From an uncultured Bacilli bacterium (GTDB taxonomy: Bacteria; Bacillota_I; Bacilli_A; RF39; UBA660), in the NCBI GenBank assembly GCA_934095845.1, contig CAKOKS010000001.1, positions 89,060 through 153,059 on the forward strand: 64,000 nucleotides of DNA, written 5' to 3'. A model generated the notes under the pieces. That model worked only from the letters and a program-made list of their open reading frames with translations. It ran no database searches and was not told the DNA's origin. Both the position numbers and the translations under genes were made by a program. How positions within the stretch are numbered: position 1 is the stretch's first letter; each line of letters begins with the position of its first letter. This document shows positions 18,591-54,926 of this stretch, piece after piece.

Positions 18591-18661
18591 GATAGTAGGC
18601 CTTTTTGTCGAATCTCTTTTTTAGAATATTTATTTAAGATATAACAAAGGTGGGTGATAAA

Positions 18662-18979
18662 ATGTTAAAGATTAATTTGGAGTATAGAAAGGGAATATTA
18701 TTTGTAAGATTAAAAGGAAATTTAAACAAGAATACAGCTCAAAAATTTATGGATTACACTTTACCAATTATTGAAGATTATGGAATTAAGTATATGGTAT
18801 ACAATTTAGATGGACTTATGTCAATAGACTCAATTGGAGAAAATGCACTTTTAAGTGGAGGACAAAGTGTTAAAGAAAATGATGGAAGAGTTTTATTAAT
18901 AAATAATCGAGTAAATACATGTTTAAGATTTGATAAAATAACTGATGAATTAGTAGCTTTGGATCTTTTAAAAGTATAG
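18662..18979 (+). CDS. spoIIAA: STAS-domain anti-sigma-factor antagonist (SpoIIAA-like)
   Basis: ATG at 18662 lies after AAGGTGGGTGA. A STAS fold with conserved Ser is present in DSIG. Confidence 0.7.
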   Translation: MLKINLEYRKGILFVRLKGNLNKNTAQKFMDYTLPIIEDYGIKYMVYNLDGLMSIDSIGENALLSGGQSVKENDGRVLLINNRVNTCLRFDKITDELVALDLLKV

Positions 18980-19593
18980 TGTTAGATTTAATAAGTGAAA
19001 ATGAATGGTTAATTTATAGTATTGCTAAAAAGTTTTATAATGTAGAAAGAGAAGACCTTTATCAAGCTGGTTGTTTGGGACTAATAAAAGCAAATAATAA
19101 TTATAAAGAGGAGTTTGGACCTTTTTCAAGTTATGCTTATAAATACATATTTGGGGAAATGTATGAATTATCAGTTAAATGTCGAAATATTAAATTAAAT
19201 AAGTATTATTTGAAACTATATAAACTAATAATAAAAGCTCATAGTTATTTAACACAGGTTTTAAGTAAAGAACCTACATTTGAAGAAATAAGTGAATATA
19301 TTGGGTATCCATCTTCTGAAATTGAGTATGTAAGTATATTATGTGAGGATATGTTTAGTTTGGATGATGAATATCAAAATATACAAGTAGGTGTTAATTC
19401 TATAAATGATGATGATTTACTTTTATCCGAATCAATAGAATCTTTAGACCCAATATCATCTTTAGTAATTAAATATCGTTTTAAAGAAGATATGACACAA
19501 AGTGAAGTTGCTCAAAAACTTGGAATGTCCCAGGTAAAAGTGTCAAGAATTGAAAGTAAAAGTAAAAAACAAATTCTTGAATATATTTCTTAA
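18979..19593 (+). CDS. sporulation-type sigma-70 family factor (SigF/SigG-like), short, 204 aa
   Basis: GTG start overlaps the upstream TAG. Region 2 (LIYSIAKKF...DLYQAGCLGLIKA) and region 4 HTH (MTQSEVAQKLGMSQVKVSRIE) are present. Confidence 0.7.
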   Translation: MLDLISENEWLIYSIAKKFYNVEREDLYQAGCLGLIKANNNYKEEFGPFSSYAYKYIFGEMYELSVKCRNIKLNKYYLKLYKLIIKAHSYLTQVLSKEPTFEEISEYIGYPSSEIEYVSILCEDMFSLDDEYQNIQVGVNSINDDDLLLSESIESLDPISSLVIKYRFKEDMTQSEVAQKLGMSQVKVSRIESKSKKQILEYIS

Positions 19594-19625
19594 AAAATCT
19601 CCATAATATAAATGGAGGTTTTTAT

Positions 19626-20027
19626 ATGGATTATAAAAAATTAGTTGATTCTTTAACTCCTAAAGAAAATAAGTTAAAAAATATATTATATGCATTTATT
19701 TCTGGTGGAGTTATTGGAAGTATTTCAGAGATTCTTGTTAAGTGTTTTCAAGTAGAAAATATGTTAGTTATTTGGATTGTCATTGCTTCAATTTTAACTG
19801 GTGCTCATGTGTTTGATAACATTGTTGAAAAATTTAAAATGGGTGTAATTATTCCAATTACTGGTTTTTCACATTCAGTTACTGCTAGTGAATTAGAATA
19901 TAAAAGTGAAGGATTAATAACTGGTATTGGTTCTAATTATTTTAAGTTAGCTGGAAGTGTAATACTTTATGGAATATTATCAGCAAGTATTCTTGCTTTA
20001 TTGAAAGGACTAATATGGTTACTATAA
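19626..20027 (+). CDS. spoVAC: stage V sporulation protein AC
   Basis: Multi-TM protein of about 130 aa in the SpoVAC/SpoVAEB family, with PITGF and GIGSN motifs. First gene of a coupled triplet. Confidence 0.75.
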   Translation: MDYKKLVDSLTPKENKLKNILYAFISGGVIGSISEILVKCFQVENMLVIWIVIASILTGAHVFDNIVEKFKMGVIIPITGFSHSVTASELEYKSEGLITGIGSNYFKLAGSVILYGILSASILALLKGLIWLL

Positions 20028-20974
20028 AATATAATAATGTGTTTATAAATAATTGGTTTTCAGTATGTGGTGAAGATGAAGCGAATGGAAATATAAAAAA
20101 TGTTAATATGGTTTTAAAAGACTTGTATTACGGAGAAAAAACTTTAGAAGAAGCTGAAATAAAAATGCAAAAAACAGTTCTAAATAACTTATCAAGTATA
20201 AGTGATTTTAACTTGGTTATTGGAGGAAATTTATCTAATCAACTTGGTAGTATGAATGCAAGTTTAAAAAATACAGGTAAATCTTTTTTAGGAGTTTATA
20301 ATGCCTGTGCAAGTTTTGTTGAAGGTATGATTATTGGTGCTAATATGATTTCTTCTAATGAAATTGATAAAACTTGTGTTTTAACTAGTTCTCATGAATT
20401 AACGAGTGAAAGACAATTTAGATTTCCAATAGAATATGGATCTTTAAAAGCAAATTACACAACTATAACAGCAACAGGAAGTGTAGGTGTAATTATTTCA
20501 AATGATAAAACAAAATGTAAAATAGTTTCTTCAACTATTGGCTCAGTTGTAGACTACTCAATAACTGATGTTAATAACATGGGAGCTATAATGGCTCCTG
20601 CTGCTATGAATACAATTATTAATCATTTAAAAAATATGAATAAAAACATCAATGATTATGACATTATATTAACTGGAGATTTAGGTAAACTTGGGTTAGA
20701 AATATTAAAAACGATTCTTTATAAAGAATATAATTTAAAAACTAATAAACTTACAGATGCTGGTTCTATTTTATATAAGGATGAACAAAACAAGTATCAA
20801 GGCGGAAGTGGACCAGTTGTTTTACCATTAGTCTTATTTAATAAAATTTTATTAAGCAAAAAATATAAACATATTCTTATTGTTGGAACTGGAGCATTAC
20901 ATAATACAACTTTAGTTAATCAAAAGAAATCTATTCCAGCAATAGCTCATGCTATAGAAATAGAGGTGCAATAA
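20015..20974 (+). CDS. spoVAD: stage V sporulation protein AD
   Basis: 319-aa thiolase-like fold protein located between spoVAC and spoVAEB. Start overlaps the upstream gene. Confidence 0.75.
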   Translation: MVTIKYNNVFINNWFSVCGEDEANGNIKNVNMVLKDLYYGEKTLEEAEIKMQKTVLNNLSSISDFNLVIGGNLSNQLGSMNASLKNTGKSFLGVYNACASFVEGMIIGANMISSNEIDKTCVLTSSHELTSERQFRFPIEYGSLKANYTTITATGSVGVIISNDKTKCKIVSSTIGSVVDYSITDVNNMGAIMAPAAMNTIINHLKNMNKNINDYDIILTGDLGKLGLEILKTILYKEYNLKTNKLTDAGSILYKDEQNKYQGGSGPVVLPLVLFNKILLSKKYKHILIVGTGALHNTTLVNQKKSIPAIAHAIEIEVQ

Positions 20975-21297
20975 TGATTATAAAATCATTTATATTTACA
21001 GGAATTGTATGTGCAATAGCTCAAATAATTAAAGATAATACTAAACTTACAAATGGTCATATTACTAGTATCTTTGTAAGTGTTGGAGCGCTTTTAGGAT
21101 TCTTTAATATATATGATAAACTTGTATCATTTTTTGGAGGAGGTGCAAGTGTAGTTATTATGTCATTTGGTAATACTCTTTATAAAGGAGCAATTGAAAA
21201 AGGTATTTTAAATATGCTTGGAAATGTTTCAACTGGAATTGTTGCGTCTATTTTAATTGCTACTATTGTAACTTTTATTTTTAAAGTAAAAGACTAG
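20974..21297 (+). CDS. spoVAEB: stage V sporulation protein AEB
   Basis: 107-aa membrane paralog of SpoVAC. Start overlaps the upstream stop. Confidence 0.7.
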   Translation: MIIKSFIFTGIVCAIAQIIKDNTKLTNGHITSIFVSVGALLGFFNIYDKLVSFFGGGASVVIMSFGNTLYKGAIEKGILNMLGNVSTGIVASILIATIVTFIFKVKD

Positions 21298-33492: not shown

Positions 33493-33519
33493 AAAGCCAC
33501 TTTATTCGTGGCTTTTTTT
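33493..33519 (+). terminator. rho-independent terminator of the 31872 gene
   Basis: Hairpin aaagccac-tttattc-gtggcttt followed by TTTT. It overlaps the gerAB stop. Confidence 0.6.
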
Positions 33520-34452
33520 CTTGTAATTATAATTAAAAATTATGAATATTAATGCTGTTATACCTAATATAAATGGTTCATATTTATACATTGTAATCAT
33601 CGCTACATAATATTTATTTACAAGGCTTGCTAGTATAAATAAAACTGGTACTATGAAATTTATTATTTTTTTATTATTTAAACAATTCTTTATATTATTT
33701 GTTAAATAAAGTAAACTTATTATAATATTAAATAACCATATGAATGACACAAAGTTTTCTATATTTTGAATGAAACCTCCAATTGATATTTTCTTCAATA
33801 ATACATATTCTGGATATCTAATGGATTCAACAAGTGGATATGAAAATATTCCATAAATCATTACACAATCTATTATTAAAAATATAGTTGCCATTGTATA
33901 TGTTTTAAGAATACTTTTATCTTTTTTTTGATTTTCTTTAGTCATAAGTACAATTGAAGTTGATAGAATTGTATAGTTTAATCCTGAAGTTAAAATGTTT
34001 ATTGATTTGGTATTTGAATAAACAAAATTTGATATATCAAAGTAGGGAAGTAAGCAAAATAAAGCAAAAAGATATAAACATATATTTATAATTAATATAA
34101 TATTACTTACTCTATATAAAACTATTTCTTTTTTATTTAAAACATAGAGCATTAAAAGAAGAAGAGGAATACTAATCATTGATTTACTCATTAAATTTAA
34201 ATACATAGTTGATGCCATATTTATTAGAATAACTAAAGCATAAACTGATATAATTGAATAAAGTATGATGTTAAATATATTATTTTTTTTCTTTATATCT
34301 AAAAAATATAAAAGAATCATGCCTAAAATATAACCTATTAAAATAGAGAATAGAAAATTTTCTTTAGAAGAAATAAGTATTTTTGAAAAACCAATTGCTA
34401 GAAATAAACCTTGCATATTAAAAAAGTTAATAATGTTCCATTCTTTTTTCAT
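33502..34452 (-). CDS. gerAB: spore germination protein, GerAB-type permease subunit
   Basis: Polytopic membrane protein, last gene of an A-C-B receptor operon. Start overlaps the gerAC stop. Confidence 0.65.
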   Translation of the reverse strand: MKKEWNIINFFNMQGLFLAIGFSKILISSKENFLFSILIGYILGMILLYFLDIKKKNNIFNIILYSIISVYALVILINMASTMYLNLMSKSMISIPLLLLMLYVLNKKEIVLYRVSNIILIINICLYLFALFCLLPYFDISNFVYSNTKSINILTSGLNYTILSTSIVLMTKENQKKDKSILKTYTMATIFLIIDCVMIYGIFSYPLVESIRYPEYVLLKKISIGGFIQNIENFVSFIWLFNIIISLLYLTNNIKNCLNNKKIINFIVPVLFILASLVNKYYVAMITMYKYEPFILGITALIFIIFNYNYKKKSHE

Positions 34453-35414
34453 TTTATTAAAAGTCCTTTCTTATTTATATGAGTGTTTACTTCAATAGAA
34501 AAATCATAATCGTAAAAGTGTTTATCTAAATTATGATACTTATTTAATAACATATTATTAATTCCTAAAACATCACTTTGGTATTCTTTTAGTTTAGTCA
34601 TTAATGAATAAATATTATTTTCTATTTCTTTATTATATCTTTCTTGTATTTTTTGTACATCTTTTATATTATTTGCTTCTTCTCCTGTAGTAATTTGTTT
34701 AACTGTTGTTTCTAAATCTAAACTTATCTTTATTTTATTTTTTATATCAATTTTTTTATCTATTTTATTTATGCTTAATTCAATATAATTATCTTTACCA
34801 TTTTTTATATAAATTTCATCATAACCAAATATTAGTTTTAAAGTATTAAGTTCATTATTATTTAAAGTACCAACAAATCTATTATCTTTATATAAGTTTA
34901 ATTTACTTACTTTTAAATTTTCATCTAATATTGGTAAAACAAAATCAGTATTTTTATCTTTTAATTTTTTTACAGTTTCAAAGAAATTATCTTTATAAAC
35001 TCTTTCTAATATGTTTTTTAAAGTTTCACCCATGTTTTTTTCTTGATCATAAATATCTGTTTTTTCAGTTATACATAAGTAAAAAGTATTATTAGTTTCA
35101 GGGCTTCTTAAAAAGTAATTTAAAGTTGTTTCAATTGGCGTATTGTTCGTTAAAATGACAGCGTTTAAATGAGCATAATAAAGATATTTACTTGAACCTA
35201 TTAAAGCATTATTAAAAGCATTTGTTAAAGTAGAACCTGTACCAGTATAGGTTTTAAAGTTTTCCTCATCTATTACTTCTAATGTTGTGTAATATAAATT
35301 ATCTTTATAATCAATTAATATTGAAGAAACTATTCCAAGTTCATTTAATTCATGATAGTTTGCACATCCTGTTAAGAAAAATAAACTTATAAGTATTAAA
35401 AATAATTTTTTCAT
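34449..35414 (-). CDS. gerAC: spore germination lipoprotein, Ger(x)C family
   Basis: Lipobox LTGC followed by ANYHELNELGIVSSILID, typical of GerAC-family N-termini. Confidence 0.75.
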   Translation of the reverse strand: MKKLFLILISLFFLTGCANYHELNELGIVSSILIDYKDNLYYTTLEVIDEENFKTYTGTGSTLTNAFNNALIGSSKYLYYAHLNAVILTNNTPIETTLNYFLRSPETNNTFYLCITEKTDIYDQEKNMGETLKNILERVYKDNFFETVKKLKDKNTDFVLPILDENLKVSKLNLYKDNRFVGTLNNNELNTLKLIFGYDEIYIKNGKDNYIELSINKIDKKIDIKNKIKISLDLETTVKQITTGEEANNIKDVQKIQERYNKEIENNIYSLMTKLKEYQSDVLGINNMLLNKYHNLDKHFYDYDFSIEVNTHINKKGLLIK

Positions 35415-36790
35415 GGAGCCTCCTTATATCTATTTTTACTTAGTAATTTACTTCTTTTTTTTGTTTTCATTTTAAATAAGGTTTGTTTTATATAAGTAAA
35501 ATCAAATGGAGATAAAGGATAAAAATATGGTTTATTAAATACTTCATAACTGGTAAGTGAAGTAAATAATGCGATTATAGCGATTCCTATACCAAATAAA
35601 CCATAAATAGAAGCAATAAATAAAAAGAAAAATCTCCAATGTCTTATGGAATTAATTACCTCTAAATCAGTAAATATTAAACTTGATATGAATGTTATAG
35701 CAACAATTATTATCATTATAGGTGAAACTATACCGGCGGAAACAGCTGCTTCTCCTAAAACAAGAGCGCCTAAAATAGAAGTTGCTGAACCATAATTTGA
35801 TGGAAACCTTATATCACTTTCTCTTAATATTTCACATATTATTAAAGTAACGATACATTCAACTACGGCAGGGAAAGGTACTTTACTTCTTTGTTCTTGA
35901 AAGTTAATTAATATAGTTGTTGGTATAGTTTCTTGATTATAAGTTGTAATTGCAATATATATTGCTGGTGTTAGGATAGCTAAAAAGAAACAAAAAAATC
36001 TTAAAACTTTTATAAAATTAATATTTATGGCTTTTTCATAATGATCGGCAATTGGGTTAATAAAATCGGCTAAGAATGATGGAACGATTAAGGCGTCACT
36101 TGAATTATCTAAAATAATTACTATTTTTCCTTCTAAAAGGGCAGAAGCTACTACATCAGGTCGTTCAGTTAATTTAAATGCCGGGAATGGATTAGTTGAT
36201 TTATCACCTAAGTATTTTTTTAATTGGTTAATGTCATTTACTCCATCACGATCAATACTTTCTAATTTTTTTATTACGTTTTCAAATATTTCTTTTTCAG
36301 CAATTGAATCAATATATAAAACACTTGCCATATTTTTAGTATATCTTCCAATATAAATATCTTTGTTTTTTAGGTCTTTAGATTTTATTCTTCTTTTAAT
36401 TAATCCTAAATTAACTTGATAATTTTCTATAAATGATTCTTTTGGTCCATATATTGTTCCTTCAGTATTAGGAGTAGATATACTTCTTGATAAGTTACCC
36501 CTAGTTTCAACTGCTATTACTTGATGTCGGTTGATTATTATAGTAAAACCAGATTCAAGATATAAACTTAATGTGTCATAGTCAGATACATCTTTTATAT
36601 TCGGACTTGGAATAAGTTCTTTTATATTTCTTGGAATATGACTTTTAGGAATTATTTTTAAAATATAATCATTTATTTTATCTTGATCAATAATAGATTC
36701 TAAATAAATAATATAGATATTTTTTATTTTTTTTATGTTTAAATCTGTAATGTTTTCATAATCAGTTTTTATTTTTTTTAAATAATCCAT
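35411..36790 (-). CDS. gerAA: spore germination protein, GerAA-type subunit
   Basis: GerA-family soluble N-domain (STPNTEGTIYGPKESFIENYQVNLGLIKRRI) with C-terminal TM helices. Confidence 0.8.
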   Translation of the reverse strand: MDYLKKIKTDYENITDLNIKKIKNIYIIYLESIIDQDKINDYILKIIPKSHIPRNIKELIPSPNIKDVSDYDTLSLYLESGFTIIINRHQVIAVETRGNLSRSISTPNTEGTIYGPKESFIENYQVNLGLIKRRIKSKDLKNKDIYIGRYTKNMASVLYIDSIAEKEIFENVIKKLESIDRDGVNDINQLKKYLGDKSTNPFPAFKLTERPDVVASALLEGKIVIILDNSSDALIVPSFLADFINPIADHYEKAININFIKVLRFFCFFLAILTPAIYIAITTYNQETIPTTILINFQEQRSKVPFPAVVECIVTLIICEILRESDIRFPSNYGSATSILGALVLGEAAVSAGIVSPIMIIIVAITFISSLIFTDLEVINSIRHWRFFFLFIASIYGLFGIGIAIIALFTSLTSYEVFNKPYFYPLSPFDFTYIKQTLFKMKTKKRSKLLSKNRYKEAP

Positions 36791-40663: not shown

Positions 40664-41409
40664 AATCATTTTATATTACTGATTCAGGAAGAGTTAGAAG
40701 TCATAATGAAGACTCAGTTACAATAGTAAAAAATTCTTCAAGTGAACACTTAATGATTGTGGCTGATGGTATGGGAGGACATCGTGCTGGTGAAATAGCA
40801 TCAAGTATGGCTGTTACTCAAATAGGTTCACGTTTCCAAGCTTTATCAACAATAGGAACTAAAATAGATGCTGTTAATTGGATAAGAGAAAATTTGAATG
40901 AAGTTAATGCTAGTATTTTAAAATATAGTGATGAACATCCTGAAGCAATGGGACTTGGAACTACATGCGTTATGGCTCTTTTGACTAAAGATTTCCTAAT
41001 GTTTGTTAATATTGGAGATTCAAGTGGATTTGTATTTAAAAATGGAAAATTGAAAAAAATCACGAATGACCATACTTTAGTTAACTTCTTAGTTGAAACT
41101 GGAGATTTATCTGAAAGAGAAGCAAAAAATCATCCAAAAAGAAATGTTCTTATGCGTGCATTAGGGGCAGCGGATACATGTGAATTTGATATTTTTGAGG
41201 TAGAAACTGATATTGATGCAATTATGCTTTCAAGTGATGGTTTAACAAATATGTTAACTCAAGATCAAATTGAAAAAGTTTTAAATGAAGAAAATATAAG
41301 TATAGAAGATAAACTAATTAAGTTAGTAAAAAAATGTAATGTTCGTGGTGGACAAGATAATATTTCAATTGCTTATTTAGTTAAAGATGATAGAATTGGG
41401 GATGTGTAG
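40660..41409 (+). CDS. stp: PP2C-family Ser/Thr phosphatase
   Basis: VADGMGGHRAGE and DGLTN motifs. Start overlaps the rlmN stop. Confidence 0.85.
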   Translation: MKSFYITDSGRVRSHNEDSVTIVKNSSSEHLMIVADGMGGHRAGEIASSMAVTQIGSRFQALSTIGTKIDAVNWIRENLNEVNASILKYSDEHPEAMGLGTTCVMALLTKDFLMFVNIGDSSGFVFKNGKLKKITNDHTLVNFLVETGDLSEREAKNHPKRNVLMRALGAADTCEFDIFEVETDIDAIMLSSDGLTNMLTQDQIEKVLNEENISIEDKLIKLVKKCNVRGGQDNISIAYLVKDDRIGDV

Positions 41410-41410
41410 T

Positions 41411-44997: not shown

Positions 44998-46167
44998 GTG
45001 ATTAAGATAAAAAAGGCAGTAGTTATAATATTAAGTGTATTTCTTCTAACTGGATGTATGAGTAATACTAAAGATATGATGAAATCATTTAAAGATTATA
45101 ATAGTAAAAAGAGTAGTTATGAATTAACTGGAGAGATGGTTATTGTTAGTAATGAAGATGAATTTACTTACAATATAAAAGTTGGAGTTGATAATAATAC
45201 TAATTATAAAGTTAGTTTAATTAATACAATAAATAATCATGAACAAGTTATATTAAAAAATTCTGAGGGGGTTTATGTTGTTACACCTAACTTAAATAAA
45301 AGTTTTAAATTTATGAGTGAATGGCCAAGTAATTCAAGTCAAGCTTATTTAATTGAATCTCTTGTAAATGATATAAATACTGATTCTAAGTCAACAATCA
45401 AGGAAACTAACAGTGGTTATGAAATTGAATCGTTAGTTAATTATCCTAATAATCAAAAACTTGAAAAAGAAACTATTATAACTGATAAAAAATTTAATAT
45501 AAAAGAAGTTGATGTAAAAAATAGTGAAGGTGCAACATTATTAAAAGTTAAAGTAAGTAATATAGATTACTCTCCAAAATTTGGAGGAGACTATTTTAAA
45601 TTAGATACTTTAGTTAAAGAAAATACAAATACAAAAAATGAAGAAAAAACTACAACAAAAGCAAAAGCAAAAGATAATAATGAAAATAAAACTGAAGAAT
45701 CTAATAATCAAGAAAATAAAACTACTGGTGAAACTACTGATAGTTGCATGAATAAATGTGAAACTCAAGAATGTAAGGATGAATGTAAACAAGATACTAC
45801 AACTACTTCTAATGTTTTAGATGATATTATTTATCCATTATATGTTCCAGAAGATACCTATCTTCATTCTAAAGATACAGTAAGTACAGATAATGGAAAT
45901 AGAGTTATATTAACATTTGCTGGAACAGATCCATTTATTCTAGTTGAAGAAAAATCAACAATGAATGAAGATATGGAAATTATTCCAGTTAATGGGGAAC
46001 CTTTATTAATAGGGAATACAATTGGTGCAATAGGAGATAATTCAGTTTATTGGACTAGCAATGGAGTTGATTTCTATTTAACAAGTAATACTCTTAATTC
46101 AAATGAAATGATGACAATTGCAGAAAGTATTACTAATGGAACATCCCTAGTTGCTAATACAAAATAG
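44998..46167 (+). CDS. lipoprotein with Cys-rich segment
   Basis: Lipobox LLTGC. Internal CMNKCETQECKDECK segment. GTG start is uncertain. Confidence 0.5.
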   Translation: MIKIKKAVVIILSVFLLTGCMSNTKDMMKSFKDYNSKKSSYELTGEMVIVSNEDEFTYNIKVGVDNNTNYKVSLINTINNHEQVILKNSEGVYVVTPNLNKSFKFMSEWPSNSSQAYLIESLVNDINTDSKSTIKETNSGYEIESLVNYPNNQKLEKETIITDKKFNIKEVDVKNSEGATLLKVKVSNIDYSPKFGGDYFKLDTLVKENTNTKNEEKTTTKAKAKDNNENKTEESNNQENKTTGETTDSCMNKCETQECKDECKQDTTTTSNVLDDIIYPLYVPEDTYLHSKDTVSTDNGNRVILTFAGTDPFILVEEKSTMNEDMEIIPVNGEPLLIGNTIGAIGDNSVYWTSNGVDFYLTSNTLNSNEMMTIAESITNGTSLVANTK

Positions 46168-46272
46168 AAATTTTTAAGAAAATGACTAATTATGGTCATT
46201 TTTTTTAATAGAATAAAAGTAATCGACTATTCTTTTCAATATATATATTATTGAAAGGAGAGTTAATTTTTT

Positions 46273-47106
46273 ATGTATAATCAAAATAAAATGCATTTAG
46301 TAAATAAAATATTTAACGATGAAACTATAAGAACTGTTTGGGATAAAGAAACAGAAAAATACTATATTAGTGTTGTAGATATAGTTCATATTTTATCGGG
46401 TAGTAATAATCCTAGAAACTATTGGAAAGTATTAAAACATAGACTAAAAAATGAAGGAAATGAGTCGGTTACAAATTGTAACCAACTGAAATTAAAAGCT
46501 CCTGATGGAAAGTATTACAATACTGATGTTGTTGATATTGAAGGAATGTTTAGAATTATAGAATCAATACCAAGTAAGAATGCCGAACCAATAAAACTTT
46601 GGTTAGCAAAATTAGGTAGTGAAAGAATAGATGAAGTGTTTGATCCATCACTTGCTATTCAAAGGTCAATAGATTTATATCGCACTAAAGGTTATGATGA
46701 AGTTTGGATAGCTAAAAGGATAAAATTTTTACAAGATAGGAAAGAACTTACAGACATTTGGAAAGAAAGTGGTTTAGAAAATAATTTAGATTATGCAATT
46801 TTAACAAATGAAATATATAAAACATGGTCAGGGTTTACTGCTAAAGAATATAAACAACACAAGGGTTTAAGAAAAGAATCTTTAAGAGATAATATGAGTG
46901 ACATTGAGCTAACTTTAGCTGATCTAGGAGAAATCGCTACTCGTGAAATTGCCAAAGAAAAACAACCATATGGTTTAGTAGAAAATCTTGAAATCGCTAA
47001 GCAGGGTGGAGATGTTGCCAGAAATGCAAGAATTGATTTAGAAAGTAAAATTGGAAAAAGTATAATTTCTAAAAATAATTCTTTAAATTATAAATATAAA
47101 AAATAA
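46273..47106 (+). CDS. Bro-N domain / DinD-like (DNA-damage-inducible protein D family) protein
   Basis: N-terminal Bro-N-like segment (IRTVWDKETEKYYISVVDIVHIL) and a C-terminal part resembling DinD (KGLRKESLRDNMSDIELTLADLGEIATREI). Confidence 0.5.
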   Translation: MYNQNKMHLVNKIFNDETIRTVWDKETEKYYISVVDIVHILSGSNNPRNYWKVLKHRLKNEGNESVTNCNQLKLKAPDGKYYNTDVVDIEGMFRIIESIPSKNAEPIKLWLAKLGSERIDEVFDPSLAIQRSIDLYRTKGYDEVWIAKRIKFLQDRKELTDIWKESGLENNLDYAILTNEIYKTWSGFTAKEYKQHKGLRKESLRDNMSDIELTLADLGEIATREIAKEKQPYGLVENLEIAKQGGDVARNARIDLESKIGKSIISKNNSLNYKYKK

Positions 47107-47187
47107 TAATTTATATAAATTAATAAAAAGTTATTGTATAAAAAAAATAGATTTAGTATAATAGAAAGCATTAAATGAGGTGGAAGT

Positions 47188-47361
47188 ATGAACGACAATA
47201 AAATAAAAGATATAAATGCTTTACTTACAGCTTTTGAATCAAGAAATGAATTACTTAATGAAGAAATCAAGCAAAATGAAGAAGCAATTAAAGAAATGAA
47301 AAAGGAACTTTCTCTCATACTGGAAGATGAAGAAGAACATAAACTAAAAATGGTAGGATAA
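47188..47361 (+). CDS. small coiled-coil protein (57 aa, not in ORF track)
   Basis: RBS GAGGTGG 6 nt upstream. Translation MNDNKIKDINALLTAFESRNELLNEEIKQNEEAIKEMKKELSLILEDEEEHKLKMVG. Followed by the hairpin atggta-ggataaa-taccat plus a T8 run. Confidence 0.45.
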   Translation: MNDNKIKDINALLTAFESRNELLNEEIKQNEEAIKEMKKELSLILEDEEEHKLKMVG

Positions 47362-47411
47362 ATACCATTTTTTTTAATATTATTTCCTATTATGTGTTAT
47401 AATGTTACTAG

Positions 47412-47948
47412 GTGGTTAAAATGAAAAAGGAAGTAAAAAAATTTGAAACAAAAGAAATTAAAAAATCTAAATATATGAATGATGATGTAAGTAAAATTAT
47501 AAGTTTCATTATAGTTTTAGTAATAGTTGGTTTATTTATTGGAGCATTGTTTTTTATAAATGGAAAATATGTTACAAAAGATGAATTTCAAGATAACAAA
47601 ACTACAGAAAGTGTTACAATTGATCAAAAATTAGTAACTTTAGATGGTATTTTTAAGGTTAGTAAAAGTGAATATTATGTACTTGCGTATAGCTTAAAAG
47701 ATACAAAAGTTGGTTCAACATTAACAAGTTTAAAAAATAGTTATTCTGGTGATATATATGTTGCTAATTTAGATGAAACAGTTAATAAAAATCATTATGA
47801 TACAACTAAAGAAGAAAAAGTAAATGTAAAAAATATTAAAGAATTAAACATAACAAAACCAACACTTATTAAAATTAAAGATAAAAAAATAATATCTTAT
47901 ACAACTGATATTGATGAGATGATTAATCTTCTTTCTAAAAAGGCTTAA
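47412..47948 (+). CDS. hypothetical membrane-anchored protein
   Basis: RBS AGGTGG. Single TM after a Lys-rich N-terminus. Confidence 0.5.
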   Translation: MVKMKKEVKKFETKEIKKSKYMNDDVSKIISFIIVLVIVGLFIGALFFINGKYVTKDEFQDNKTTESVTIDQKLVTLDGIFKVSKSEYYVLAYSLKDTKVGSTLTSLKNSYSGDIYVANLDETVNKNHYDTTKEEKVNVKNIKELNITKPTLIKIKDKKIISYTTDIDEMINLLSKKA

Positions 47949-47972
47949 TTAAGTCTTTTTTTAGGAGGGTTT

Positions 47973-49163
47973 ATGAATAAGATACGAAAAATATTTAAAA
48001 TAAAAAACAAAAATACAACTTATACTTTTAAAGAACTATTAATAGTTACTATTTTTGTTACTTTAATTGTTAGTACTATAACCGGAATTGTAGTTTATAA
48101 AGTTATATCTAGTAATGAACTTATAAAGTTAGAGTCATCTTACAATAAAATTAAAAATGAATACTATAGTGATATTAATAAAGAAGAATTAGAAAATGCA
48201 GCTATTGATGGAATGATGAAATATCTAAATGAAAAATATTCTTTATTTATGGATCAAGAAGAAACATCTTCTTTAAATGATAAATTAGAAGGTAATTATG
48301 ATGGTATAGGTATTGAGATTGGTATTAAAGATAAAAAAATAATGGTTTTAAATGTTTATGAAAATACTCCTGCAAGTGTAGCTGGTTTAAAAGTAAATGA
48401 TGAACTTGTTAAAGTAGAAGATTTAACAATTAACGAATCTACAACATTAAAAGATGTTACAAGTTTAATAAAGGATAAAAGATCTGTTAAATTATCTATT
48501 AAAAGAGATAATGAAGTAAAAGAATTTAGTATTGATATTAAAAAAATTGATAAACCAGTTGTTACAGAAAAAATATTTGAAAGAAACAATAAAAAAGTAG
48601 GTTATATTTATCTTTCTACTTTTAGTGAAAATGCTGGAACTCAAGTAAAAGAGGCATTAAAAAAATTAGATGAGGAAAATATTGATAGTTTGATATTTGA
48701 TGTAAGAAGTAATACCGGTGGTTATTTAACAAGTGTAACTGAAATTTTAAATATGTTCTTAAAAAAAGGACATTTAATGTATTCATTAGAAGAAAAAGAT
48801 AAAAAGAAAATGTATTATGATACAACTAAAGAAGAATATGATAAAGATATAGTTGTTTTAATAGATAGAAAAACAGCATCAGCATCTGAAATACTTGCAT
48901 CTTCTTTAAAAGAAAGTTATGGAGCAACTATTGTAGGAACAACTTCTTATGGTAAGGGAAAAGTTCAAAGTACTTATAAATTATCAAAAGATACAATGCT
49001 AAAATATACGACTGCTAAATGGTATACACCTAATGGAAATTCAATTGATGAAGTAGGAATCACTCCTGGAATATATGTTACTTTGGGTAAAGAATATGTT
49101 TTAAATCCATGTGATGAAACTGATTCTCAACTACAAAAAGCAGTAGATTTATTGACACAATAA
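47973..49163 (+). CDS. S41 carboxyl-terminal processing protease (CtpA/CtpB-like) with PDZ domain
   Basis: PDZ domain (TPASVAGLKVNDELVKV). S41 motifs RSNTGGYL, TASASE and GKGKVQ. Immediately upstream of spo0A. Confidence 0.8.
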   Translation: MNKIRKIFKIKNKNTTYTFKELLIVTIFVTLIVSTITGIVVYKVISSNELIKLESSYNKIKNEYYSDINKEELENAAIDGMMKYLNEKYSLFMDQEETSSLNDKLEGNYDGIGIEIGIKDKKIMVLNVYENTPASVAGLKVNDELVKVEDLTINESTTLKDVTSLIKDKRSVKLSIKRDNEVKEFSIDIKKIDKPVVTEKIFERNNKKVGYIYLSTFSENAGTQVKEALKKLDEENIDSLIFDVRSNTGGYLTSVTEILNMFLKKGHLMYSLEEKDKKKMYYDTTKEEYDKDIVVLIDRKTASASEILASSLKESYGATIVGTTSYGKGKVQSTYKLSKDTMLKYTTAKWYTPNGNSIDEVGITPGIYVTLGKEYVLNPCDETDSQLQKAVDLLTQ

Positions 49164-49189
49164 TGTAAAATGTGTCATTTTTTTTGCTT

Positions 49190-49230
49190 TTCGACATTAC
49201 TCGACAATACTTGACGTAAATTGACATATT
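49190..49230 (+). promoter_or_regulatory. tandem Spo0A-box-like repeats upstream of spo0A
   Basis: TTCGACA at 49190 is the exact complement of the 0A box TGTCGAA. It is followed by CTCGACA at 49200, TTGACGT at 49211 and TTGACAT at 49221, at roughly 10-bp phasing. Confidence 0.45.
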
Positions 49231-49305
49231 TTACTCTTTATCTTTACATTTATTTATAATATAATGTTTTTAGCAGTTGAATAATTATTAGAAAAAGGAG
49301 ATATT

Positions 49306-50040
49306 ATGGCGATACGTGTAATGATGATTGATGAAGACATCAATCAAATAAATGCAGTAGAGAAGTATTTCAGTAGTTCTAGTAGTATCAATGTTGTAAA
49401 AGTAATTAGTAATAAGGAAGAAGCATTAAATTCATTAAATGAAGATTATGATGTTTTAGTGGTTAACTTATTATTAAGTGGTTGTTTATGTAATTTAATT
49501 CTTGCAAAAATGAAAGAAATGGGAATTAGTAAAAAAGTAATTGTTACAAGTGAATTTGTAAGCCCTGATATGATGAATAGCTTGAATGATTACACATTGA
49601 ATTATTTATTAAAGAAACCTTATTCATGTAATGAACTTGAAAGAGTTATTGCATCAATTTATGTTAAAGAAGAAAAACATATAGATAAAAAACTTAAATT
49701 AAAGATTACAGATATGTTACATAATTTAGGAATACCTTCTAATATAAAAGGATATACTTATATAAGAGATGGAATCGAAATGATGTATAATGATACTTCT
49801 CTTATGGGAGCAATTACTAAAGAATTATATCCTAAACTTGCAAGAAGTTATGATACAACATCTTCAAGAGTAGAAAGAGCAATTAGACATGCAATTGAAA
49901 TTTCTTGGAGTAGAGGAGATTATGACCTTATGGAAGAAATATTTGGTAATTCAGTTGACTGTGATAAGTCAAAACCTACTAATGGAGAATTTATTGTAAC
50001 ATTAGCTGATAGATTAAAATTAGAAAGTAAGTATGTATAA
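49306..50040 (+). CDS. spo0A: Spo0A sporulation master regulator, with Asn at the phospho-acceptor position
   Basis: The C-terminal domain carries canonical Spo0A motifs (IKGYTYIRDGIEMMYND...SSRVERAIRHAIEISWSRG...KPTNGEFI). The receiver domain aligns with B. subtilis Spo0A, but the D56 position reads VLVVNLLL (codon aac). Confidence 0.85.
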   Translation: MAIRVMMIDEDINQINAVEKYFSSSSSINVVKVISNKEEALNSLNEDYDVLVVNLLLSGCLCNLILAKMKEMGISKKVIVTSEFVSPDMMNSLNDYTLNYLLKKPYSCNELERVIASIYVKEEKHIDKKLKLKITDMLHNLGIPSNIKGYTYIRDGIEMMYNDTSLMGAITKELYPKLARSYDTTSSRVERAIRHAIEISWSRGDYDLMEEIFGNSVDCDKSKPTNGEFIVTLADRLKLESKYV

Positions 50041-50085
50041 TATTAGTTAAATATCCTCATATAATTAATAGGAGGATATTTTTTT

Positions 50086-51903
50086 ATGAATGATAATTTT
50101 AATTATGAAGTAAAAAAAATATTAAAGAATGCAGAAAAAGAATGTATGAATTTAAAACATCCTTATGTTGGAACAGAACATTTACTTTTAAGCTTACTTA
50201 AAAATAAAGATGTGTTAGAAGTAGCTTCTCATTATGGATTAACATATGAAATATTTAGAGATGAACTTATTAATATAGTAGGTCTTTCAAATAAAAAAAG
50301 TGAAGTAATATTATATACACCTCTTTTAAGAATGGTTATTGAAATGAGTACTAAAGAAGAAAATGTTACTGCTAAAAACATAATGAAAAATTTACTTTCA
50401 AGTGATGATGGAATTGCTTTAAGGCTTCTCATGGGTTTAAATATTGACATTGAAAGTATGTATAAAGAATTAAGTGAAGATGATATAAGTGAATTAAGCG
50501 TTATTGGGGAACAAATAAAAAGTGATAACATTTTAATTGGAAGAGATAAAGAGATAAATGAAATAATTCAAATTCTTTTAAGAAAAAATAAAAATAATCC
50601 AATATTAATAGGTGAAGCTGGTGTTGGAAAATCAGCAATAGTTGAAGAACTATCAAGAAGAATTGATGCCAATCTTGTACCACCTAAGTTAAAAGGTAAA
50701 AAAATTATTTCTCTTGATATGGCTAGTATGCTTTCAAATACTAAATATAGAGGAGAATTTGAAACAAGACTTAATAACATAATAAAAGAAGTTAAAAAGA
50801 ATAAAAATATTATTCTATTTATAGATGAAATACATACAATCGTTAAAACGGGTGGTGGAGAAGGTAGCATTGATGCAGCTAATATTTTAAAACCATATCT
50901 TGCTAATGATAAAATAAAAATTATAGGTGCAACAACTACTTATGAATACGAAAAATTTATATCTCCTGATAAAGCATTAAAAAGAAGATTTCAAAGTGTT
51001 ATGGTTGTTGAACCTAATGAATTAGAAACAAAAAATATTTTATTAGGTGTAAAAAAAATATACGAGGATTTTCATAATGTTAAAATAACTGAAAGCAATA
51101 TAGATTATATTGTTAGTCTTGCTAATAAATATATTTATACAAATCATAATCCAGATAAATCATTAGATGTACTTGATATGGTCGCATCTAAAGTAAATAT
51201 GGAAAGTGAATTACAAGAAAATAGTTTTAAATGTAATGAATATTTAAATAATAAAGATTATAAAAATGCATACTATTTAAGGAAAAATAATAAAAAGAAA
51301 TTGACTATAAAAAATAAAGATATAGAAGAAACAATTATGTCTATAACAGGTATTAATTTAATTAAACAAAAGGATATTGATAATTTATGTCATATTTTAA
51401 ATAATAGGTTTGGAATTAATAATATGAATAGAATTTTTGAAAATAGGTTAAATAGTAATAAAGTTTTAAGTTTTACTTTAAAAGGTAAAGATAAAGATAT
51501 TAAAGAAAAAATAGTTAAGACAATTGTGTCTACATTAAAATATAATTATTTAGAGCTTGATTTAAAAGATTACGTAAGTGATACATCAATAAATAGAATT
51601 GTAGGAAGTGATCCTGGATATATTGGTTATAATGATGTTAACTTATTAAGTAAAATAAAATATAAACCGTATTCATTAATATATTTAAAAAATGCAGACG
51701 CTTCTTCTTATAAAGTATTAGAGTTATTTAAATCAATAATTGATAAAAGTTATATAAGAGATAATAAAAATGAATTAGTAGTTTTTGATAATTGTGTTAT
51801 TATTATGGATAAATTAAAAGAAACTCCAATAGTTGGATATGAACATCATGAAGAAAATACTAATTTTGAAGTAGACACTGATTTAATAATTACTAATGCA
51901 TGA
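50086..51903 (+). CDS. ClpC-like AAA+ protein with intact D1 and catalytically degenerate D2
   Basis: Clp-N domain. D1 has Walker A GEAGVGKS and Walker B ILFIDEIH. D2 retains RIVGSDPGYIGY and VVFDNCVIIM but lacks Walker A and B. Confidence 0.6.
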   Translation: MNDNFNYEVKKILKNAEKECMNLKHPYVGTEHLLLSLLKNKDVLEVASHYGLTYEIFRDELINIVGLSNKKSEVILYTPLLRMVIEMSTKEENVTAKNIMKNLLSSDDGIALRLLMGLNIDIESMYKELSEDDISELSVIGEQIKSDNILIGRDKEINEIIQILLRKNKNNPILIGEAGVGKSAIVEELSRRIDANLVPPKLKGKKIISLDMASMLSNTKYRGEFETRLNNIIKEVKKNKNIILFIDEIHTIVKTGGGEGSIDAANILKPYLANDKIKIIGATTTYEYEKFISPDKALKRRFQSVMVVEPNELETKNILLGVKKIYEDFHNVKITESNIDYIVSLANKYIYTNHNPDKSLDVLDMVASKVNMESELQENSFKCNEYLNNKDYKNAYYLRKNNKKKLTIKNKDIEETIMSITGINLIKQKDIDNLCHILNNRFGINNMNRIFENRLNSNKVLSFTLKGKDKDIKEKIVKTIVSTLKYNYLELDLKDYVSDTSINRIVGSDPGYIGYNDVNLLSKIKYKPYSLIYLKNADASSYKVLELFKSIIDKSYIRDNKNELVVFDNCVIIMDKLKETPIVGYEHHEENTNFEVDTDLIITNA

Positions 51904-51941
51904 AACACCCATTTGTGATATAATCAACTTAGAATAAGAGG

Positions 51942-52811
51942 GTGCTTATGAACAATGATGAATTACCAAATGTAAAACAAATTAATAGAATTGCTAAAGT
52001 AATTAAAGTAGATGAATCTGGTAATGTAAAGGAAAGTAATGAGATTTTACCAGAAGAACCTATTAAAAATGAAAATGTTGAAAAATTAGAAAGTATTCAA
52101 GATAAGAATGTTTCTCATGATTCATCAACAGCCATTTTTATTACTGTTATTTTAATCATTATTGCATGTGTAGCATTTTTTATAGTATATATATATCTAC
52201 CAAATAATTATCATGGAGTAACTGGGAATGAAGGAACGCCAACAACTAAAACTCCAGAATATTATTTTGATATATTTGATTTAAGTGATAATGATATTGA
52301 TTTTCAAACTGAAGTAAAATTAAATGATAAATTTACTTTAAAAGTAGAAGATTTAAATGCTAAAAAGAATATTAAAGTTAATGATATAACGATTGCAACT
52401 GCTAATAAAGTTTATAAAAAAGCATCAATTGTAGATAATATTTTATTTATATTTTTGATAAATAATGAACCAAGACAAAATAGAGTTATTGGAGTAACAA
52501 GTGACGGTAAAATACTAGCTGATATTTCATCTATTAAAAATATGTCTGGCATGAGTGTAAATGAAGTTGTGTTTAATCCAACTGGAATTACTTTAATGGC
52601 ATCAAGAGTATATAATAATAAATTAATTCTTTCATCTAATTTTGGAGATGTAAATGGTTCTGATATATGTAATTCTTCATCTTCTGAAGAAATGCTTGCT
52701 ACTGGTAACTTTGAAATTAGTTATAAAGGAAATAATGAATTAAGTGATGCTAAAAAAATAAGTGGTGAAACTATAAAAGAATACGTTAAAAACAACAATA
52801 TGTGTCAATAA
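51942..52811 (+). CDS. hypothetical membrane-anchored protein
   Basis: Single TM (AIFITVILIIIACVAFFIVYIYL). No recognisable domain. Confidence 0.5.
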   Translation: MLMNNDELPNVKQINRIAKVIKVDESGNVKESNEILPEEPIKNENVEKLESIQDKNVSHDSSTAIFITVILIIIACVAFFIVYIYLPNNYHGVTGNEGTPTTKTPEYYFDIFDLSDNDIDFQTEVKLNDKFTLKVEDLNAKKNIKVNDITIATANKVYKKASIVDNILFIFLINNEPRQNRVIGVTSDGKILADISSIKNMSGMSVNEVVFNPTGITLMASRVYNNKLILSSNFGDVNGSDICNSSSSEEMLATGNFEISYKGNNELSDAKKISGETIKEYVKNNNMCQ

Positions 52812-52863
52812 TATTGCTTAAAATAAAACAAATTAGTATAATAAAATGTAAGCAGGTGATAAA

Positions 52864-54255
52864 ATGAAATTTTATAATACATTAACTAAAAAAGTTGACA
52901 ACTTTGTTCCAATTCATGAAGATATAGTAAATATGTATACTTGTGGTCCAACCGTTTATCATTATGCTCATATTGGAAATATGCGTAATTACATTGGACA
53001 TGATATACTTGAAAAAACTTTATTATATTTAGGATACAATGTTAAAAGAGCTATGAATATTACAGATGTTGGTCATCTTACAAGCGATGCTGATACTGGT
53101 GAAGATAAAATGGAAGTTGCATCAAAAAGAGAAGGTAAAAGTGCTTATGAGATTGCTGATTTTTATACAGAAGCTTTCTTTAAAGACTTTAATAGTTTAA
53201 ATTGTAAGATGCCAGAAATTGTTTCTAAAGCAACAGATAATATTGATATGTATATTAAAATAATAGAAGATTTACTTAAAAAAGATATTGCTTATATAAG
53301 TGGTGGAAACGTTTATTTTGATATATCTAAAGTAGATGATTATTATAAATTATCTAATCATTCTTTAGAAGGAAATATGGTTGGTATAAGAGAAACAGTT
53401 ACAAGTGATGAAAAGAAACGTAACCAAGCAGATTTTGTTTTATGGTTTACTAAATCTAAATTTGAAAATCATGAAATGGTTTGGAATTCACCATTTGGTG
53501 TTGGTTATCCAGGATGGCATATTGAATGTTCTGGTATATCAATTAAATATTTAGGTGAATACTTAGATATTCATGGTGGTGGAGTAGACAATATATTCCC
53601 ACATCATACTAATGAAATTGCTCAAAGTGAGGCTTATTTAGGTCATAAATGGTGTAATTATTGGTTCCATAATGAACATTTACTTGATTCAACTGGAAAA
53701 ATGAGCAAAAGTAAAGGTGACTTTTTAACAGTAACTTTACTTATTGAAAAAGGATACGATCCATTAAGTTTTAGATTTATGTGTTTAAATAGCCATTATA
53801 GAAAACAATTGGTTTTTACTTATGAAGCACTTAATCAAGCAGAAGCAACTTTAAAAAAACTTAGAAATAAAATATCTAATATAGTTGATGAAGGAGAACT
53901 TGATGAAGGAGAATTCAGTACTTATAATGATAGATTTATTAAAGAAATATCTAATGATTTAAATACTGCAAATGCTTTATCTGTTATGTATGAACTTATT
54001 AAAGATGAACAAGTTAATGGTCATACAAAATTAGAATTAATTAAAAAATTTGATAAGGTCTTTAGTATCAATTTAATAAATGAAAAAAATAAAAATGATG
54101 ATAAAGAAATATTAGATTTAATTGAAAAGAGAAGTGAAGCAAAGAAAAATAAAGACTTTGAACTTGCTGATTCAATTAGAAGCGAACTTGAAAGTAGAGG
54201 AATTATTCTAGTTGATACTAGAGAAGGAACGACTTATAAAATTGTAGGAGAGTAG
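52864..54255 (+). CDS. cysS: cysteine--tRNA ligase
   Basis: HIGH motif (HIGNMRNY) and KMSKS motif. Confidence 0.9.
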   Translation: MKFYNTLTKKVDNFVPIHEDIVNMYTCGPTVYHYAHIGNMRNYIGHDILEKTLLYLGYNVKRAMNITDVGHLTSDADTGEDKMEVASKREGKSAYEIADFYTEAFFKDFNSLNCKMPEIVSKATDNIDMYIKIIEDLLKKDIAYISGGNVYFDISKVDDYYKLSNHSLEGNMVGIRETVTSDEKKRNQADFVLWFTKSKFENHEMVWNSPFGVGYPGWHIECSGISIKYLGEYLDIHGGGVDNIFPHHTNEIAQSEAYLGHKWCNYWFHNEHLLDSTGKMSKSKGDFLTVTLLIEKGYDPLSFRFMCLNSHYRKQLVFTYEALNQAEATLKKLRNKISNIVDEGELDEGEFSTYNDRFIKEISNDLNTANALSVMYELIKDEQVNGHTKLELIKKFDKVFSINLINEKNKNDDKEILDLIEKRSEAKKNKDFELADSIRSELESRGIILVDTREGTTYKIVGE

Positions 54256-54257
54256 TT

Positions 54258-54926
54258 ATGGATTTAATAATAATTTTTTTACTAATGCTAATTATTCCAA
54301 TTTATGCATCAATTAAAGTTAATGTAAATTACAAAAAATATAAAAAAGTAACAAATGAAAAGGATTTAACTGGATTTGATGTTGCAAGAAGAATATTAGA
54401 TGAATTTGGACTTGGAGATATTTATGTTGTTGAAACTAAAGGAGTTATGAGTGACCATTATGACTCTAGAAGAAAAACTGTTAGGCTTTCAACTGAAGTA
54501 TTTCATGGAACAAGTGTTGCTTCTGTTGCAATAGCAGCTCATGAATGTGGACACGCTATTCAAGATAAAGAAGGTTATACTTGGATGAAATTAAGAAATA
54601 TTATTTTCCCAATTGTAAATATTGGTCAAAGAATCGCTTATATTGTAATGATTATTGGTTTATTCTTAAGTTATATGGATTATGTTTATGCAGCAATTGG
54701 ATTTACATTTCTAGGACTTTTATTTGAACTTGTAACATTACCAGTTGAGTTTGATGCTTCTAAAAGAGCAAAAGATATAATTTTAAAAGATGGTATGATT
54801 AATGATAAAGAGAAAAAAGGCGTTGATGCTGTTTTAAACAGTACAGCTTTAACATATGTTGCTGCAGTTGTGTCATCAATGTTAGAAATCCTTTATTTAT
54901 TAATTCAATTAAACGATCGCGATTAA
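54258..54926 (+). CDS. membrane zinc metallopeptidase, YugP-like
   Basis: HECGHAIQ zinc-binding motif. Two TM segments. Confidence 0.65.
   Translation: MDLIIIFLLMLIIPIYASIKVNVNYKKYKKVTNEKDLTGFDVARRILDEFGLGDIYVVETKGVMSDHYDSRRKTVRLSTEVFHGTSVASVAIAAHECGHAIQDKEGYTWMKLRNIIFPIVNIGQRIAYIVMIIGLFLSYMDYVYAAIGFTFLGLLFELVTLPVEFDASKRAKDIILKDGMINDKEKKGVDAVLNSTALTYVAAVVSSMLEILYLLIQLNDRD

Follow-up and report, generated by a model that had tools for sequence, protein, structure and literature searches.

Spo0A with asparagine at the phospho-acceptor site: a probable phosphorelay-independent pseudo-receiver in a clade of uncultured gut Bacilli

Spo0A is the textbook end-point of the phosphorelay, and current papers describe all studied Spo0A proteins of endospore formers as regulated by phosphorylation of a conserved aspartate. 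In a 64-kb stretch of AT-rich DNA (24.4% GC) from an uncultured Bacilli bacterium (contig CAKOKS010000001.1; the whole stretch of 64,000 nucleotides is referred to as the window, and all coordinates are positions in it), a spo0A gene encodes asparagine at the position of this phospho-acceptor. Is the asparagine genuine, and how could a Spo0A protein work with it? The initial annotation of the locus had offered three explanations: a single base-call error, a spontaneous asporogenous variant, or a lineage whose Spo0A is controlled without phosphorylation of the aspartate. The evidence presented here supports the last of these. We consider it probable that the protein is a natural Asp-less pseudo-receiver form of Spo0A, shared by a whole clade of uncultured gut Bacilli and independent of a phosphorelay. 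The gene and its two domains are as follows.

49306..50040, plus strand: spo0A, 244 amino acids plus stop codon (open reading frame (ORF) list, Pfam, NCBIfam)
49306..49662, plus strand: receiver (pseudo-receiver) domain, residues 1-119, with an intact (beta-alpha)5 fold (AlphaFold2, Foldseek, substitution rates)
49687..50037, plus strand: Spo0A C-terminal DNA-binding/transactivation domain, residues 128-244, with the conserved recognition-helix segment TTSSRVERAIRHAIE (Pfam, phmmer, Foldseek)

The assignment of the C-terminal domain to Spo0A, already made in the initial annotation, is unequivocal. Residues 134-237 match the Pfam family Spo0A_C (PF08769) over its full length (1-104 of 104) with an E-value of 1.4e-39 and 134.7 bits against a cut-off of 25, and phmmer searches of the PDB sequences retrieved the Spo0A-C domains of B. 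subtilis and G. stearothermophilus (1lq1, 1fc3) at ∼1e-40. The modelled domain superimposes on the same two structures with a template-modelling (TM) score of ∼0.9 at 53% sequence identity (Foldseek), and its recognition-helix region is near-identical to the B. subtilis counterpart. The receiver was described as otherwise conserved, which does not hold. It scores 29.7 bits against Response_reg (PF00072), just under the gathering score of 30.2, finds B. subtilis Spo0A-N only weakly in the PDB sequences (phmmer, E-value 5e-5) and carries several changes of the pseudo-receiver type. Because the receiver has diverged and the linker is short, the whole protein stays below the cut-off of the NCBIfam Spo0A equivalog TIGR02875 (188.9 versus 200 bits). 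The fold itself is preserved: an AlphaFold2 model built from a 78-sequence alignment (mean predicted local distance difference test score 87.4, ∼90 over the receiver) shows a regular (beta-alpha)5 arrangement that matches the Spo0A receiver 5wq0 with a TM score of 0.85 and a root-mean-square deviation of 1.8 at 22% identity (Foldseek). By its output domain and predicted targets the protein thus is a member of the Spo0A family, and it lacks the acceptor aspartate that is a hallmark of that family.

49465..49467, plus strand: codon AAC, Asn54 in place of the phospho-acceptor Asp (D56 of B. subtilis; alignments, structure model)

The position of the acceptor was determined in three ways, by phmmer against PDB sequences, by MAFFT and with a hidden Markov model built from 80 canonical Spo0A sequences; all place D56 on Asn54 within the segment DVLVVNLLLS. 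The AlphaFold2 model agrees, with beta-3 comprising residues 50-54 and Asn54 at its C-terminal end, Asp9 following beta-1, Ser82 ending beta-4 and Lys104 following beta-5. Residues 52-56 read V-V-N-L-L and contain no aspartate within two residues of Asn54, so the objection that the alignment register might be wrong fails. The reading of the site as asparagine and of its codon as aac is upheld; the codon had been placed at 49468-49470, 3 nt from its actual position. A neighbouring alternative acceptor was also considered, as in CheY D57N, in which Ser56 takes this role; it was ruled out because residue 53 is Val or Ile.

How far the asparagine extends was examined by a homologue search over 5.8 billion proteins, which yielded 120 homologues with 54-99% identity, nearly all of them unnamed proteins from metagenome-assembled genomes (MAGs). 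In the resulting set of 119 full-length members, window protein included (hereafter the clade), the acceptor column is occupied by Asn in 94 and by Asp in 25 sequences (N-type and D-type), and by no other residue. Asparagine is retained down to ∼55% identity to the window protein, which establishes by comparison with sister strains and species that it is clade-wide. The identical 244-residue protein is encoded by 22 contigs, each assembled independently, of several gut metagenome projects, and its 90% cluster holds 37 sequence variants, with Asn54 in 15 of the 15 listed. As acceptor codon the window has AAC, five relatives have AAT and one D-type relative has GAT.

Substitution rates were calculated by the Nei-Gojobori method for relatives with unsaturated synonymous divergence (dS). 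The ratios of nonsynonymous to synonymous rates (dN/dS) were 0.08, 0.26 and 0.19 for the receiver and 0.08, 0.12 and 0.07 for the C-terminal domain, which clearly indicates purifying selection on the receiver, although it evolves faster than the C-terminal domain. In a neighbor-joining (NJ) tree computed without the D56 column, the homologues form a single clade that is sister to the canonical Spo0A proteins of gut Bacilli, 'Tenericutes' and 'Mollicutes' MAGs, with the Bacillales outside. Parsimony on this tree requires six Asp/Asn changes within the clade. An identity check that does not depend on the tree gave the same picture: the D-type P0045 is 90% identical to the N-type P0042, the D-types P0043 and P0064 are 80 and 74% identical to the N-type P0033, and the D-type P0120 is 70% identical to the N-type P0119, each of the four being nearer to an N-type than to other D-types. 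Since Asp and Asn are interchangeable among close relatives, phospho-Asp appears not to be essential. The strict choice between the two residues together with their free exchange argues that the side chain has a structural role and need not accept a phosphoryl group any more. AT mutational pressure would favour the change from GAT to AAT. An apparent covariation between positions 11 and 54 (D11 with N54, N11 with D54) was rejected, as it traces to one monophyletic D-type subclade and isolated D-types carry D11.

As canonical outgroup we used 80 Spo0A sequences of at most 48% identity among the matches listed in the genome-contig search. All 80 have the acceptor Asp, Ser or Thr at the T position and Lys at or beside the K position; the Asp-Asp pair is present in 77, the exceptions being L026, L032 and L064. 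Because the outgroup keeps its acceptor throughout, the Asp-to-Asn change is specific to the clade. The residues around the acceptor site in the window protein are the following.

49330..49335, plus strand: Asp9-Glu10 at the 'DD' positions; Asp9 invariant in the clade, position 10 varying between E, S, N, A, G and Q (clade alignment)
49477..49479, plus strand: Ser58 at D+4, canonical Pro60 (alignment column: Ser in 73 and Asn in 43 clade members, Pro in 39-40 canonical sequences)
49549..49554, plus strand: Ser82 at the invariant 'T' position and Glu83 at T+1 (clade alignment)
49612..49617, plus strand: Lys103-Lys104; Lys104 is the conserved 'K', Lys103 a clade-specific invariant Lys replacing Leu (clade alignment)

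With D9, E10, N54, S82 and K104 the window protein lacks the complete DD-D-T-K set. The statement that the acidic pocket, the T/S position and the lysine are retained is correct for Asp9, Ser82 and Lys104, but the second acidic residue is Glu and not Asp. D9, S82 and K103 do not vary across the clade, and K104 hardly does. The second position of the pair (DD2, B. subtilis D11), which binds metal and is canonically Asp, is mostly S, N, A, G or Q and is Ser in the main D-type subclade. T+1 (B. subtilis A87) is Glu in 116 of the 119 members, compared with Ala or Ser in canonical proteins. A Ser-Ser-Ser run at residues 25-27, variable in canonical Spo0A, is nearly invariant. Receivers without the D residue have been defined as ALR domains, and pseudo-receivers tend to lose Pro at D+4 and Ala or Gly at T+1 and to become more acidic in the beta3-alpha3 and beta4-alpha4 loops; a small T+1 residue is normally required to keep the phosphorylation site accessible (PMC12632262). 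Ser58 and Glu83 match these tendencies, which are trends and not strict criteria. The protein, with its recognisable receiver fold and no acceptor Asp, falls within the ALR/pseudo-receiver definition, and its receiver is a remodelled yet constrained pseudo-receiver.

If the receiver has changed in this way, are the targets of the DNA-binding domain still in place? The relevant elements in the window are these.

49190..49226, plus strand: four 0A-box-like repeats in 10-bp phase upstream of spo0A, TTCGACA, CTCGACA, CTTGACG and ATTGACA (sequence, cross-locus alignment)
49260..49305, plus strand: TATAAT -10 element (49260-49265) and conserved short leader with ribosome-binding site (TAGCAGTT...AGAAAAAGGAGAT; alignment)
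18606..18612, plus strand: exact 0A box TGTCGAA ∼50 nt upstream of a spoIIAA-like gene, with a TATAAC -10-like element 27 nt downstream (sequence scan)

The first repeat of the spo0A array is, on the minus strand, an exact 0A box (TGTCGAA at 49190-49196). The phased array is shared by seven loci with protein identities as low as 57%, a D-type locus among them. The TGTCGAA upstream of the spoIIAA-like gene stands at the same register in four species, forming an island of identity within diverged intergenic DNA, and TATAAC is kept as well. Two of the three exact boxes in the window thus sit at classic Spo0A targets, the promoters of spo0A and of spoIIAA-sigF-spoVA; the argument rests on this position and on conservation across species, not on counts. 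The spo0A leader itself (49271-49305, TAGCAGTTnAAnAATTATTAGAAAAAGGAGAT) is almost invariant where the Spo0A proteins are only 57-66% identical (L085, L088-L092), and this near-invariance suggests a post-transcriptional or transcription-start element. A promoter and terminator scan around spo0A was uninformative, and no match in the window reached an Rfam gathering score.

Downstream of the second box lies a putative Spo0A target operon, and the window further contains a germinant receptor operon.

18650..21297, plus strand: putative Spo0A target operon (Pfam, NCBIfam; conserved in L093-L095)
18650-18979, plus strand: STAS/SpoIIAA-like protein (Pfam; NCBIfam best match spore_II_AA, below cut-off)
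18979-19593, plus strand: SigF-like sigma factor, 204 amino acids (Pfam; NCBIfam best match spore_sigF, below cut-off)
19626-20027, plus strand: SpoVAC (Pfam)
20015-20974, plus strand: SpoVAD (Pfam)
20974-21297, plus strand: SpoVAEB (Pfam)
33502..36790, minus strand: GerA-type germinant receptor operon (Pfam GerA, E-value 8.5e-131; Spore_GerAC)
35411-36790, minus strand: GerAA (Pfam)
34449-35414, minus strand: GerAC (Pfam)
33502-34452, minus strand: probable GerAB

The target operon is also found in three further species (L093, L094 and L095), with a sigma factor that is 65-78% identical; against the SigF equivalog this factor scores 108.7, the cut-off being 321. Together with SpoVAC, SpoVAD and SpoVAEB, GerAA and GerAC, and a CtpB-like gene described below, the SpoIIAA-like and SigF-like genes belong to the sporulation and germination genes of the window, which are intact ORFs. 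These intact genes and the conserved boxes make a connection from Spo0A to spoIIA/sigF likely. No histidine kinase domain (HisKA, HATPase_c) was found among the ORFs of the window, either in family scans or in the Pfam table. In all four species the stop codon of the spoIIAA-like gene overlaps the start of the sigF-like gene (∼5684-6618 in L093-L095), with no gene for the anti-sigma kinase SpoIIAB between them, and tblastn with a B. subtilis SpoIIAB query gave no match in the window, L093 or L095. Given this arrangement, SigF must be regulated in some way other than the SpoIIAA/SpoIIAB/SpoIIE partner switch.

Two of the explanations originally offered for the asparagine can be set aside on the clade data. 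A sequencing or assembly error at 49465, the true codon being GAC, would need only a single G-to-A change in an AT-rich genome. The probability of such an error is negligible, given that the identical protein was recovered on 22 independent contigs from different samples, that 15 further variants all have Asn54, and that 94 clade members carry Asn, encoded by AAT in relatives. A recent loss-of-function allele of one strain, arisen by domestication, would be in keeping with the frequency of spo0A loss-of-function alleles in laboratory strains. In C. difficile, moreover, the D56A substitution cuts sporulation more than 1000-fold (bioRxiv 10.1101/2022.02.07.479450). We nevertheless regard this origin as highly improbable: the sources are uncultured metagenomes, Asn is held down to ∼55% identity, both domains are under purifying selection (dN/dS 0.08-0.26 for the receiver and 0.07-0.12 for the C-terminal domain), and the species share the promoter, the 0A boxes and the synteny.

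The observations that weigh against a phosphorelay-independent Spo0A come from the active site, from the genomic context and from box counts. With D9, E10, S82 and K104 the window protein keeps a near-complete site, which leaves room for deamidation of Asn54 to Asp after translation, followed by phosphorylation by a kinase, the asparagine serving as a delay or pro-form. That only D and N are seen at the site fits this idea, and for ALRs of the Asn type deamidation has been raised before, with the remark that a receiver with an Asn acceptor can revert rapidly to Asp (Maule et al., PMC4395418). On the other side, the asparagine is followed in every case by a bulky hydrophobic residue (L, M or Y). 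Spontaneous deamidation is slow before such residues. In addition, DD2 is S, N, A, G or Q in most of the clade, the bulky Glu at T+1 and the Pro-less D+4 position are unfavourable to phosphotransfer, and no histidine kinase was seen among the ORFs of the window; we therefore give deamidation little credence. A further explanation is that the protein is a paralogue, with a canonical Spo0A elsewhere in the genome running sporulation, or a relic repurposed as a transcription factor after sporulation was lost. The analysis covered 64 kb of the genome together with 20-kb loci, and a canonical spo0A, histidine kinases and Spo0F/Spo0B may lie elsewhere. A synteny test gave no help in judging orthology, since the loci with canonical spo0A in other gut Bacilli MAGs have no neighbours in common with this one. 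Many odd metagenomic Spo0A_C proteins exist, multi-domain ones included; loss of sporulation is predicted for some related reduced-genome families, and related reduced-genome orders are predicted to include non-sporulating species (PMC10868615). Against a paralogue, the longest contigs with relatives measure 1.06-1.44 Mb, a hint of small genomes in which a duplicate master regulator is less likely to be kept, and the clade is sister to the canonical Spo0A of gut MAGs, as an orthologue would be. Four to seven species share the exact 0A boxes that precede the spoIIA operon and the spo0A gene, and the intact sporulation and germination ORFs argue against a relic. A paralogue or relic is thus unlikely, but it is the alternative that we take most seriously. 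Finally, the window as a whole shows no enrichment of 0A boxes: TGTCGAA occurs 3 times with 2.0 expected, and TGNCGAA 8 times with 6.2 expected, which is not significant.

How might a phosphorelay-independent, Asp-less Spo0A be activated? The DNA-binding domain is intact and most likely still recognises canonical 0A boxes. With its active site rebuilt (N/D acceptor, DD2 mostly lost, Ser at D+4, Glu at T+1 and an additional Lys), the receiver would no longer be capable of acting as a His-Asp phosphotransfer switch. Activity would instead depend on how much of the protein is present, by way of positive autoregulation at the phased 0A array and of control at the promoter and leader; a receiver biased towards an active or dimeric conformation, or one controlled by a partner, may contribute. 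Activation would then be constitutive or driven by concentration and would serve real sporulation. More speculatively, Glu83 together with Lys103/Lys104 and Ser82 might mimic the phosphoryl group, and the serine run at residues 25-27 could form a new regulatory surface. In related reduced-genome orders spo0A is present and Bacillus-type sporulation sensor kinases are absent (PMC10868615). We tentatively propose, as a possibility somewhat short of even odds, that a clade of gut Bacilli with small genomes starts endospore formation without His-Asp phosphotransfer, its sole Spo0A being a pseudo-receiver whose activity is governed by autoregulated expression.

In comparison with known systems, the window protein shares with B. 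subtilis and C. difficile Spo0A the combination of receiver and Spo0A_C, the same recognition helix within a C-terminal domain of 53% identity, and TGTCGAA boxes in front of spo0A as well as the spoIIA operon. It differs in having Asn for Asp56, in the altered DD2, D+4 and T+1 positions and in a receiver of only ∼22% identity. Full-text literature searches returned no description of a natural Asp-less Spo0A. In the laboratory, sad67-type alleles allow Spo0A to drive sporulation genes without the phosphorelay once inhibition by the receiver is relieved; those are engineered or selected deletions or substitutions in a canonical receiver, whereas here a full-length receiver is under natural purifying selection. 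RitR of Streptococcus pneumoniae is a redox/Cys-controlled regulator of the OmpR type. As an Asn53 ALR it has the same receiver fold with an Asn acceptor (PMC4395418); its output domain and biology are different, and it carries Asp at the T position where S82, along with K104, is retained here. RitR-like redox control through Cys60, Cys62 and Cys109 was considered and rejected, as these cysteines are found only in close relatives of the window protein (29 of 119). ALR domains and pseudo-receivers in general likewise lose the Pro at D+4 and the small T+1 residue, with activity presumably independent of the acidic triad (PMC12632262). In Streptomyces, BldM and WhiI direct development of the sporulation type through phosphorylation-independent receivers that are controlled by expression level and choice of partner (PMC12632262). 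The window protein would share with them developmental control by a receiver that does not need phosphorylation; BldM and WhiI have NarL/FixJ-type outputs, belong to exospore-forming actinomycetes and are homologous only in the receiver fold. Judged by analogy, RitR, BldM and WhiI are the nearest functional counterparts.

A conserved and selected Asn form of Spo0A departs from the textbook end-point of the phosphorelay. If our interpretation is true, a clade that has kept sigF, spoVA and gerA genes and conserved 0A boxes shows that a sporulation decision can be wired without kinases. This bears on how reduced-genome gut bacteria transmit between hosts, on the prediction of sporulation from MAGs, in which the presence of spo0A counts as evidence for a functional pathway, and on the debated activation of pseudo-receivers (PMC12632262).

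The immediate neighbours of spo0A are conserved in the clade.

47973..49163, plus strand: membrane-anchored CtpB-like S41/PDZ peptidase, directly upstream of spo0A; adjacency conserved in the clade
50086..51903, plus strand: short ClpC-like AAA+ ATPase, 605 amino acids, directly downstream of spo0A; adjacency conserved in the clade

They are part of a conserved block (44998-54926; L085-L092) that begins with a hypothetical protein of ∼360-390 residues showing a weak GerS-like match (E-value 2e-4), a 57-residue ORF, a protein of ∼175 residues and the CtpB-like peptidase, and continues after spo0A with the short ClpC-like ATPase (577-662 residues), a hypothetical protein of ∼290 residues, cysS and a Zn_peptidase_2 gene. 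The S41/PDZ protease holds the place that in Bacillus and Clostridioides belongs to spoIVB, a neighbour of spo0A that encodes another PDZ serine protease. The peptidase was also considered as a Spo0A-processing enzyme and was rejected, because its N-terminal membrane anchor makes it probably extracytoplasmic. Between the 389-residue and 57-residue genes the window contains a Bro-N gene (277 residues, a phage-associated domain) at 46273-47106. This insertion occurs in the window species and in L091 (95% identity) and is absent from L085, L088, L089, L090 and L092. Six kb upstream of spo0A, a rlmN-prpC-prkC-rsgA-rpe cluster encodes a PP2C phosphatase and a PASTA Ser/Thr kinase (PrpC/PrkC-like, 40660-43180), a pair that might provide an alternative input to a Spo0A with the nearly invariant serine run at residues 25-27.

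A wider survey covered 95 receiver-bearing Spo0A-like representatives of the 50% clusters nearest to the query, a sample that is biased toward relatives of an Asp-less protein and may include paralogues. The complete canonical site is present in 40 of them. Eighteen are Asp-less, with Asn in eight (one being the window protein), Glu in seven, and Ser, Gly and Cys in one each, which hints that Asp-less Spo0A-like proteins arose repeatedly. Four further proteins of 390-450 residues (P0138, P0139, P0140 and P0142) consist of three or four Spo0A_C domains in tandem, an architecture of which we know no description; an N-terminal receiver is unlikely in them, since the listed matches begin near the N-terminus. 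In the Spo0A of Thomasclavelia cocleata DSM 1551 (Erysipelotrichales; L064, 5324-6082), Glu-Glu replaces the Asp-Asp pair while the acceptor Asp is kept, and the lysine is apparently displaced by one position (FKQPF compared with ILKPF). Remodelling of the receiver may therefore extend beyond the clade.

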